A DNA stretch of 32,000 nt. Origin: Chlamydiales bacterium. GTDB taxonomy: Bacteria; Chlamydiota; Chlamydiia; Chlamydiales; JAAKFR01. Made by a program: the position numbers. Below are positions 18,001 to 21,000 of this stretch, one piece after another. Numbering within the stretch: position 1 is the stretch's first letter; each line of letters opens with the position of its first letter. The stretch lies in the NCBI GenBank assembly GCA_041395025.1, contig JAWLBH010000001.1, forward strand, positions 510,001 through 542,000. Direction: 5' to 3'.

Positions 18001-21000
18001 GAATTTAGATGCAGGATCACCTGTGTCATTTCCTTCTTTGCCTGAGAAGGATGGGGACATGGGTTTCCCATACTGCTTGAATTTGATGTCTTCCGGAAAT
18101 TTTTCTTGTCTAGTAAGCTTTTGAGCTGCCTTGAGGGAATGACGACGATTTCTTAACTTCACTACAATCCCAATCATCGTTAGAATGAAACTACTTCCAC
18201 CACCCACAGCTATCATGATCGTAGCATGCACCTGATGAAGAGTACTAATCGCTCCACAATAATGAGAAACACCGACTCCTGCTACAACCAATCCCCCAAT
18301 AGCTACAATAATAAGAATCGCAAAACCATAACTCTTTCCCTTCGAAGAAGACCCGATATTTTCTCTAACCAATTCTTGATTGGTCCTCGGAGAAATCATT
18401 TTTGAAAAACTCATAACTATAAATTGTAAGAATGAAAAAATAGTTTACCTAAAAATAGTTTACCTAAAAATAGTTTACCTAAAAATAGTTTACCTAAAAA
18501 TAGTTTACCTAAAAATAGTTTACCTAAAATAGTTTACCTAAAAATAGTTTACTAAAAATAGTTTACCTAAAAATAGTTTACCTAAAAATAGTTTACCTAA
18601 AAATAGTTTACCTAAAAATAGTTTACCTAAAAATAGTTTACCTAAAAATAGTTTACCTAAAAATAGTTTACCTAAAAATAGTTTACCTAAAAATAGTTTA
18701 CCTAAAAATAGTTTACCTAAAAATAGTTTAAAATAGTTTACCTAAAAATAGTTTACCTAAAATAGTTTACCTAAAAATAGTTTACCTAAAAATAGTTTAC
18801 CTAAAAATAGTTTACCTAAAAATAGTTTACCTAAAAATAGTTTACCTAAAAATAGTTTACCTAAAAATAGTTTACCTAAAAATAGTTTACCTAAAAATAG
18901 TTTACCTAAAATAGTTTACCTAAAAATAGTTTACCTAAAAATAGTTTACCTAAAAATAGTTTACCTAAAAATAGTTTACCTAAAAAATAGTTTACCTAAA
19001 AATAGTTTACCTAAAAATAGTTTACCTAAAAATAGTTTACCTAAAAATAGTTTACCTAAAAATAGTTTACCTAAAAATAGTTTACCTAAAAATAGTTTAC
19101 CTAAAATAGTTTACTAAAAATAGTTTACCTAAAAATAGTTTACCTAAAAATAGTTTACCTAAAAATAGTTTACCTAAAAATAGTTTACCTAAAATAGTTT
19201 ACCTAAAAATAGTTTACCTAAAAATAGTTTACCTAAAAATAGTTTACCTAAAAATAGTTTACCTAAAAATAGTTTACCTAAAAATAGTTTACCTAAAAAT
19301 AGTTTACCTAAAAATAGTTTACCTAAAAATAGTTTACCTAAAAATAGTTTACCTAAAAATAGTTTACCTAAAAATAGTTTACCTAAAAGATAATAAATAA
19401 AACAAGTTAAAAATAATATGTGTAGCATAAAAATCTTTTAAGACTAGGAATTCTCCATAACATGAGGCAAATCTAGATAGTCCTATCAATCGTAGTCTCT
19501 TGTTTACCAACTTCATTAAAACTAGTAGAGAACATCAAATTCTTCTAACACAACTTTGGTTCCATTTTTCTCTTACAAACACCCTGAAAAACATTCCTTA
19601 AATATACTCATAAATTTCATAGTTATGATTTATAGCAACTTAAAAGATAACCTCATCAATAATTCTTCTCTGTAAGGAAGCTTCAGAACTATTCTTATCT
19701 TCTTATTAAAGTTCAAATGTGGGGCCTTCCATAAGTTCCATCTACGTGCTCTTACCCATGTATCATCATCTAAATTCATCTGATATATAAAAATTTCCCG
19801 AGACTTATCGCTTAAATAAATCCAAGCAATAACAAGATCGCAAGCTGGATCACCGAATGGCAGTATTACCAAAATCAATCACACCAGATAATTTGTTATC
19901 TTTGATGAGTATATTACCAATCGCAACATCACTATGAATCCAAACAGCTGCTTGCTTCCATTTGGCCGCACAGGCTTTATCCAAAAAATCTAAAGCTTGA
20001 TTAGATGCTATGAAGTCAACAATTCTTACTATCTGCTCTGTTGTTAACTTGAGTAGATTGAGACTCTTTCCATACAACCATTTGTATTCTGCCGCAACTG
20101 GCATGCAAAACCATCTTTGATCCAAGCCCATTCAAACTTAATTTCATTACTATCAGAGCATCCACTCGCCATAAACAACACCACCATTACCAGCATAGCT
20201 TTTGAAAAAACTATAAAATGTCTACATATAACCTCAAAATTCGTTAGCCAGTATTTGCTCAGCTCAAATTAAAAAAAACACTTGCATTATATCATAAACT
20301 GTGATACCAACCCAGCGGATATTCTCATTCTGAGTACTCCGCATACCACTAATTCTTTATCTACTCATTCATAGTTCCAAGAATATAGGCAATGCAGATT
20401 TTACGCTTGACCGCTCTTGCTAAAATAGGTAAAAATATATCATGTCCTAATAGTGACGATATTTGCTACTTTTAGGACATATAATACAAAAATGCTTGAC
20501 TGAAGTCAAATTCTGAGATATCATGTCCTATAAGTGGCATTTTTTAACACTTTTAGGACATACCATGTTTTCAGAATATATTCAGCAACTAAGAGCTAGC
20601 GGTAGGCGGCATTTCACCTCTGAGGAAATACGTGCAGAATTACAGCTATCTGATAGTTCTGCTAGATCTGGTTTGTATCGATTAAAAAGAGATAAGAAGG
20701 TTATAAGCCCCGTCAATGGACTATATGTCATTGTCCCGCCTGAATATCAATCTTATGGCTCAATCCCTGCAGAAGAGCTAGTGCCGATCATAATGCAACA
20801 TCTGCAAGCTGATTATTATGTAGGGTTGCTCAGCGCTGGATTATTCTATGGTGCAACTCATCAAAAGCCAGCACGTTTCCAGGTCATTACTAACAAAAGA
20901 ATCAAACACTCCCTTGAATTTGGCGATGTGGTTATTGAGCTTGTTTATAAAGATTCTCTACAGGGCTTGCCAACTCAAGATTTTGTAGTTAGCACTGGTT

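Follow-up and report, generated by a model that had tools for sequence, protein, structure and literature searches.

A promoter-derived minisatellite upstream of a frameshifted paralog in a Chlamydiales genome

A stretch of 32,000 nucleotides from a Chlamydiales bacterium (assembly GCA_041395025.1, contig JAWLBH010000001.1, positions 510,001 to 542,000; hereafter the window) carries a large minisatellite directly upstream of P5, one of the genes of a five-gene tandem family (P1 to P5). The array consists of 64 head-to-tail copies of a 15-bp unit whose source lies in the promoter region of the paralogs. With a probability of about 0.55, we explain it as a young non-coding variable-number tandem repeat (VNTR) that has displaced the promoter of P5, a decaying member of an effector family under birth-and-death evolution. 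A preliminary description of this DNA had instead proposed a contingency switch for an effector-like gene. The analysis did not support this proposal: P5 is split over three reading frames, and no second copy of the locus was found in the collections searched. As P5 is broken, the array is more readily read as debris of replication slippage, or as a lesion that silenced the gene, than as a genetic switch in working order.

Structure of the array and its origin in a family promoter

Tandem Repeats Finder detected one large array in the window, at positions 18436-19388 (period 15, 64.3 copies, 97% matches, 2% indels, score 1813). The unit, read on the minus strand, is TTTTTAGGTAAACTA; when searched with up to two mismatches, it gave 61 matches, every one within the array, against 0.26 expected by chance. 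Cutting after each AAACTA divided the array into 64 units, 54 of which are perfect. The variants are a founder unit (CTTTTAGGTAAACTA, whose first base C belongs to the unique flank), five 14-bp units with T4, two 14-bp units with a single G instead of GG, one 16-bp unit with T6 and one truncated 10-bp unit (TTTTAAACTA), which corresponds to a 5-bp deletion. Of the 10 variant units, 9 differ in homopolymer length (T5 to T4 or T6, GG to G), and no substitution occurs among the 64. The predominance of perfect units (54/64) and the lack of substitutions indicate a recent expansion or ongoing homogenisation. The G+C content of the array is 20%, against 31-41% in the 1-kb blocks outside it and a window mean of about 36%.

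The extent of the array (about 64 units of 15 bp) and its end 21 nt before the P5 start codon (18414) are therefore as first described. With its head-to-tail arrangement, a unit in the range of about 10-100 bp and high identity between copies, it is a minisatellite, or VNTR, in the usual sense. It had also been suggested that variant units recur in similar local patterns. Both single-G units do have a T4 unit within the next two units (post hoc permutation P = 0.02), which speaks weakly for such patterns. Shifting the array against itself, however, never brought more than one variant into register, and no higher-order block structure was thus detected.

The elements of the array and of its flanks, all on the minus strand, are as follows.

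18436-19388, minus strand: minisatellite of 64 head-to-tail TTTTTAGGTAAACTA copies, non-coding (Tandem Repeats Finder, unit parse, stops in the P5 ATG frame)
19380-19410, minus strand: 31-nt stretch identical to 13365-13395 upstream of P2 (sequence comparison)
19400-19405, minus strand: -35-like hexamer TTGTTT of the family promoter, 986-991 nt from the P5 ATG (comparison with P2)
19376-19381, minus strand: TAAACT of the founder unit, 18 nt after TTGTTT, at the position of TATAAT in P2 and TATAAA in P1 (alignment of the five upstream regions)
18442-18447, minus strand: TAAACT of the last unit, in its original context relative to the P5 start codon (sequence)
18415-18440, minus strand: unique leader TTTTTTCATTCTTACAATTTATAGTT between array and ATG, homologous to the P3 leader (upstream alignment)
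13361-13395, minus strand: P2 promoter region TTGTTT-N18-TATAAT, the unamplified counterpart of the array source (24-mer search, sequence comparison)

The upstream flank of the array connects it to the promoter of P2. The 24-mer TTGTTTTATTTATTATCTTTTAGG at 19382-19405 (minus strand) has exactly one other occurrence, at 13367-13390 upstream of P2. This identity, already pointed out in the preliminary description, extends in fact to 31 nt (TTAACTTGTTTTATTTATTATCTTTTAGGTA). Immediately after the shared stretch, P2 reads TATAAT (TTGTTT-N18-TATAAT) whereas P5 reads TAAACT, as had also been reported, and P1 has TATAAA at the homologous position. When the array is collapsed to one unit, the region upstream of P5 becomes colinear with those of P1 and P2, from the shared TTAAAAGATTTT block to the start codon. 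The unit corresponds to a conserved segment, TTTTAGGTA, that the promoters of P1, P2, P3 and P5 share in their -10 regions. These comparisons support the view that the array is the amplified -10 and proximal-spacer segment of a putative promoter common to the paralog family. TTGTTT would be part of this promoter, judging from the TATAAT at the corresponding position of P2. In the P5 leader (18415-18440), no clear Shine-Dalgarno sequence was found.

A TTTT microhomology can be read directly on both sides of the unit. The ancestral P5 sequence was probably atcTTTTaggtaaactaTTTTttcatt, in which the future unit lies between two TTTT runs and would offer a substrate for slippage. Slipped-strand mispairing between these two runs, which bracket the P5 -10 region, would have started the array, and further slippage or unequal exchange would have expanded it to 64 copies. 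Because the microhomology brackets the unit, birth by slipped-strand mispairing of the -10/spacer segment, as originally proposed, is well supported. The displacement of the ancestral -35 by about 1 kb was likewise borne out: TTGTTT-N18-TAAACT, the one complete copy of the family promoter, now lies about 990 nt away from the P5 ATG, and the gene-proximal copy retains only the -10-like hexamer. The expected consequence would be a loss or an attenuation of P5 function rather than a tuned control.

A weak promoter had been proposed in every unit. Each pair of units indeed recreates TTTTTA-N17-TAAACT, but this arrangement agrees with the consensus at 7 of 12 positions, which is only the background level: sites of 7/12 or better (with A2 and T6 in the -10 hexamer) occur outside the array at 18.5 per kb per strand. 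A consensus promoter scan at a threshold of 9/12 called none in the array, and the opposite strand carries a better match than the unit strand (TTTACC-N16-AAAAAT, 8/12). No per-unit promoter of the sigma-70/sigma-66 type (16-18 nt spacer) was thus found above background. Given this background density, the absence of any 9/12 site and the better score of the opposite strand, the resemblance of the unit to a promoter is no more than AT-rich repeated DNA yields by chance. A -10-dependent promoter at the TAAACT of the last unit could still fire.

A transcript from the distal promoter would carry a leader of about 975 nt, unstructured, U-rich and devoid of start codons. Perfect units contain no ATG, GTG or TTG, every unit has a TAA in the frame set by the P5 ATG, and the 1-nt variants of unit length break every frame in the array. 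No intrinsic terminator was predicted within the array or upstream of it, and shuffled sequences fold into more structure than the array RNA does (z = +4.9).

Four other classes of repeats were considered. A coding tandem repeat is ruled out by the stops, the lack of start codons and the broken frames, and a structured RNA by the fact that the array folds worse than its shuffles and that Rfam has no match in the window. The array is not of the clustered regularly interspaced short palindromic repeats (CRISPR) type: its units are contiguous, with start-to-start distances of 14-16 nt (10 for the truncated unit) and no unique spacers. An iteron or centromere-like binding array also appears unlikely, as the window encodes no rep or par domains and the unit shows no dyad symmetry.

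P5 and the five-gene paralog family

The state of P5 weighs heavily in the interpretation of the array. The members of the family and the parts of P5 are listed below.

10338-11819, minus strand: P1 (open reading frame (ORF), five-gene tandem family)
12046-13338, minus strand: P2 (ORF with an in-frame TAG at 13291-13293)
13628-14968, minus strand: P3 (ORF, five-gene tandem family)
15213-16469, minus strand: P4 (ORF, five-gene tandem family)
16662-18414, minus strand: P5, in three frames (tblastn of the paralogs)
17752-18414, minus strand: P5 N-terminal ORF, 220 aa, two-helix hydrophobic hairpin and linker, ending at frameshift 1 (ORF, alignment of the internal duplicate)
16775-17755, minus strand: P5 C-terminal domain ORF, 326 aa, in a second frame, ending prematurely after frameshift 2 (tblastn, DNA alignment with P2 and P4)
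16662-16813, minus strand: P5 C-terminal tail, in a third frame, homologous to the end of P2 (tblastn)

When the paralogs were compared with the P5 region by tblastn, three frames were recovered: frame 1 for the hairpin, frame 3 for the C-terminal domain and frame 2 for the C-terminal tail. Frameshift 1 is a 1-nt deletion at 17778/17779 (ACTCAA-ACAAGG, against ACTCAAGATAAG in the internal duplicate of P5 itself), and frameshift 2, at about 16813/16814, is a GG where P2 and P4 both have GGG. The linker between the hairpin and the C-terminal domain of P5 contains a 213-bp internal tandem duplication (17779-17929 and 17992-18142, 80-92% identity); frameshift 1 sits at the end of its second copy.

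P2 is the closest paralog of P5, with 76% nucleotide identity over 303 shared codons and 87-95% in C-terminal stretches. P2, which possesses the perfect TATAAT, is also damaged: its codon 16 is an in-frame TAG (13291-13293), due to a substitution and not to an indel. Two of the five copies (P2 and P5) are therefore disrupted. In the deposited annotation, P2 (389 aa) begins within the hairpin. Calculated over the 303 shared codons, the pairwise ratios of nonsynonymous to synonymous substitution rates (dN/dS, Nei-Gojobori) range from 0.77 to 1.18 among all five paralogs, the three intact copies included, which fits either relaxed constraint or diversifying selection across the family. As P5 is one of two degenerate copies in what looks like a birth-and-death family, the array would be either tolerated or itself the silencing lesion.

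Each paralog begins with two hydrophobic helices and a short loop between them, and also has a conserved C-terminal domain of about 290 aa. We take the helix pair to be the bilobed hairpin typical of chlamydial inclusion-membrane (Inc) proteins. The C-terminal domain has no Pfam match, and homologs of the family, 36-43% identical, were found in Waddlia chondrophila and on a few contigs of metagenome origin. The AlphaFold model of P4 has a predicted local distance difference test (pLDDT) score of 80-94 over most of the C-terminal domain. Searched against the PDB, this model retrieved almost only macrodomains, with weak scores (E 1e-3 to 1e-1, target template modelling (TM) scores mostly 0.3-0.5), while a sequence-profile search of the family against PDB sequences gave no match. 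A macrodomain-like fold is thus a lead only, under which the family may consist of membrane-anchored effectors that bind or hydrolyse ADP-ribose.

The spacers between the paralogs are also repeated. A module located at 13402-13548 (P3-P2 spacer) and 16523-16669 (P5-P4 spacer) is 94% identical between the two, and other conserved intergenic stretches lie at 11982-12049 and 15027-15094. The module comprises, in this order, a terminator-like hairpin (TCCTCATCTCATGGGGA), a T-rich sequence and the family promoter block. The terminator and the promoter were duplicated along with the genes. Two perfect two-copy tandem duplications were found as well, one of 17 bp at 13609-13642, which also forms a 12-bp terminator-like hairpin just 3' of the P3 stop codon, and one of 22 bp at 26041-26084.

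Upstream of the array lie fragments of an APH-family phosphotransferase gene, with further fragments beyond; this region therefore also seems to be decaying. Short ORFs with partial APH phosphotransferase matches occur on both strands (19630-20131, 23780-24412, 24438-24842 and 25808-26071) and appear to be fragments of decaying paralogs flanking the array region. As a whole, the locus has the look of a gene family evolving by birth and death amid decaying surroundings.

Reliability of the assembly and competing explanations

The source genome is a metagenome-assembled genome (MAG) made of a single contig of 1,319,052 bp, probably a long-read assembly. The other coding sequence in the window (13.6 kb) contains 111 A/T runs of at least 5 nt and no frameshift, and its Pfam coverage is that of full-length genes. 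In comparison, 6 of the 63 T-runs in the array are altered, against none of these 111 runs in intact genes (Fisher P = 0.002). The global indel error rate being low, the lesions of P5 are probably real, and so is the array. Consensus errors confined to the repeat, beyond the reach of short-read polishing, might nonetheless be present.

Several points weigh against the explanation that we prefer. Both P5 frameshifts are single-base deletions in a MAG; if they were consensus errors, P5 would be intact. Such deletions, together with the homopolymer-length variants of the units, match the signature of long-read consensus errors. Moreover, the N-terminal ORF of 220 aa that immediately follows the array is intact, and a small membrane protein could still be made from it. 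Values of dN/dS close to 1 would be equally compatible with a live effector family under diversifying selection. Since small genomes have a deletion bias, 64 copies are many for a bacterial repeat that is purely neutral. Finally, silencing and neutrality would both be deductions from the sequence.

The array could be a contingency locus or an expression rheostat, in which its copy number, between promoter and coding sequence, would tune or switch P5. Its location is that of a phase-variable promoter repeat of the hmw or nadA type, as it separates TTGTTT-N18-TAAACT from the ATG, and a comparable position is known for hmw (PMC8262952). The highly homogeneous unit would imply active slippage, the family has an Inc-type membrane hairpin and plausibly acts at the host interface, and the N-terminal ORF of P5 is intact. 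However, the gene downstream of such a repeat is expected to be intact, whereas P5 is disrupted twice and only its 220-aa ORF is open. In addition, the array, with 64 copies and 953 bp, far exceeds the sizes at which expression is graded by hmw-type repeats, for which 13-24 copies were tested (PMC8262952). Chlamydiae are bottlenecked, yet no promoter-repeat phase variation of this kind was reported in the chlamydial literature searched (PMC2820232).

No second allele of the locus was found either in the genome, metagenome or viral collections searched. Exact-pattern scans for two array units returned no match in genome_contigs, metagenome_contigs or viral_contigs, nor did a scan of metagenome_contigs with a 29-mer of the P2/P5 promoter or a protein-based search for the array locus in genome_contigs. 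The proteins of the window have no record in the contig index. The flanking epimerase, used as a route to a close relative, has a best non-self match of 61% identity, and no relative was close enough for synteny; for the paralog family, the best non-self match is 43% identical. At the loci of family members in Waddlia and in two metagenome-derived contigs, the 15-bp array is absent, only micro-repeats of 2-4 copies being present. A literature search by locus tag retrieved no paper. Taken with the disruption of P5, we regard a rheostat as unlikely.

We regard it as quite unlikely that the array is partly an assembly artefact, that is, a real repeat whose length and 14- and 16-bp variants come from long-read consensus building. 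The one-contig 1.32-Mb MAG, probably made from long reads, the nature of the variants (9 of 10 in homopolymer length, with zero substitutions) and the two single-base deletions of P5 would all agree with such an origin. A general error rate, however, does not account for the variants, given the contrast between the A/T runs of the other genes and the T-runs of the array (111 unaltered runs against 6 altered of 63, P = 0.002), and the 5-bp deletion of the 10-bp unit is atypical of homopolymer error. Furthermore, both unique flanks have their counterparts in the paralog promoters, and collapsing the array brings them together with no extra sequence; the junctions are therefore biological.

A more daring view is that of a live regulatory device, about 1 kb long and in a size class of its own, in which 64 promoter-derived -10 elements set, through their copy number, the expression of the first gene of an effector family with an Inc-type hairpin and a macrodomain-like domain, or act as a decoy for the polymerase or regulator of the sister promoters. 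This is improbable in our opinion. If it were true, either the P5 frameshifts would stem from faulty assembly or the array would act on the 220-aa hairpin ORF, which is intact, and an obligate intracellular chlamydia would have gained a heritable and reversible expression rheostat.

A function at the DNA level, either as a decoy titrating the regulator or RNA polymerase of P1-P4 or as an easily melted AT-rich supercoiling element, would suit a unit that corresponds to the conserved TTTTAGGTA of four family promoters and is present in 64 copies at a G+C content far from the window mean (20% vs. about 36%), but it is very improbable, since the unit has no dyad symmetry beyond TAG/CTA and occurs nowhere else in the window, no partition or replication genes are nearby, and the 15-bp period would be out of phase with the DNA helix.

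Neighbouring genes and comparison with known repeats

Other genes of the window deserve mention. An AbiEi/AbiEii type IV toxin-antitoxin pair is located at 20523-22153. Two 45-nt direct repeats, 80% identical, are found at its 5' end (20437-20481 and 20518-20562); each contains the inverted repeat ATGTCCTAA...TTAGGACAT, and the second overlaps the called start codon. These repeats are likely operator sites of the antitoxin. The closest matches of an SDR-family epimerase (9346-10197) show about 61% identity; its named relatives (at most 57% identity) belong to Rickettsia, other Alphaproteobacteria and Legionella, and not to Chlamydiae, an affinity that suggests possible gene exchange among intracellular bacteria. 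A Fic/DOC-domain protein of 387 aa is encoded at 29512-30675, near the variable region.

If real, the array is an unusually clear case of the birth of a bacterial minisatellite, as the source segment, the seeding microhomology and the unamplified sister promoter are all present within the same 6 kb. Runaway slippage could then displace a promoter by 1 kb even in a 1.3-Mb genome, and this displacement may be a further way of turning off duplicated effector genes in families that evolve by birth and death. The array would gain greater importance if its copy number were variable and linked to expression, because no promoter-repeat phase variation was found in the literature searched on Chlamydiae (PMC2820232).

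Among known systems, the nearest analogues in functional terms are the hmw1A and hmw2A genes of Haemophilus influenzae, which, like P5, have a tandem repeat between the coding sequence and the promoter that drives it. In these genes, a higher number of 7-bp repeats leads to less transcript and protein, and changes in repeat number (about 13-24 copies) were documented in serial isolates from one patient (PMC8262952). The likeness is positional only: a 7-bp unit in about 13-24 copies precedes an intact adhesin gene in hmw, whereas a 15-bp unit in 64 copies precedes a frameshifted gene here.

Within the same phylum, repeats are known in Chlamydiaceae, some of them in inc genes: a 15-nt repeat in ORF663 of C. 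pecorum, which has the same period as our array, a coding repeat in incA, an intergenic 8-nt repeat between rrn and nqrF and a 22-bp repeat in four copies on the plasmid (PMC2820232). The repeats of ORF663 and incA are coding, unlike the array, which has stops in the P5 frame and no start codon. According to the review, C. trachomatis and C. pneumoniae do not have many tandem repeats, and the VNTRs of C. psittaci and C. abortus have 2-6 copies (PMC2820232).

The closest counterparts come from other intracellular bacteria. Ehrlichia ruminantium and Wolbachia are well known to have intergenic tandem repeats that vary in copy number (PMC3287509). E. ruminantium has the highest repeat content, attributed to slipped-strand mispairing, and Wolbachia genomes contain 72-94 tandem repeats of at most about 12 copies each (1.8-11.8 in wMel), with mean unit lengths of 59-81 bp in the three larger genomes (PMC3287509). 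Like our array, VNTR-105 and VNTR-141 of Wolbachia and the repeats of E. ruminantium are non-coding, made of head-to-tail and near-identical units, located in small intracellular genomes and related to slippage (PMC3287509). They mostly have long units, few copies and a documented polymorphism, whereas the array has 64 units of 15 bp and an identifiable source in the -10 region of a promoter. The preliminary description had judged such an array unusual in small obligate-intracellular genomes. This holds for its copy number, which is far above the 2-6 copies (PMC2820232) and 1.8-11.8 copies (PMC3287509) reported elsewhere, but not for its kind, which has precedents in Ehrlichia and Wolbachia. 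Repeats of this kind are therefore known in intracellular bacteria, and it is the 64 copies that are exceptional.

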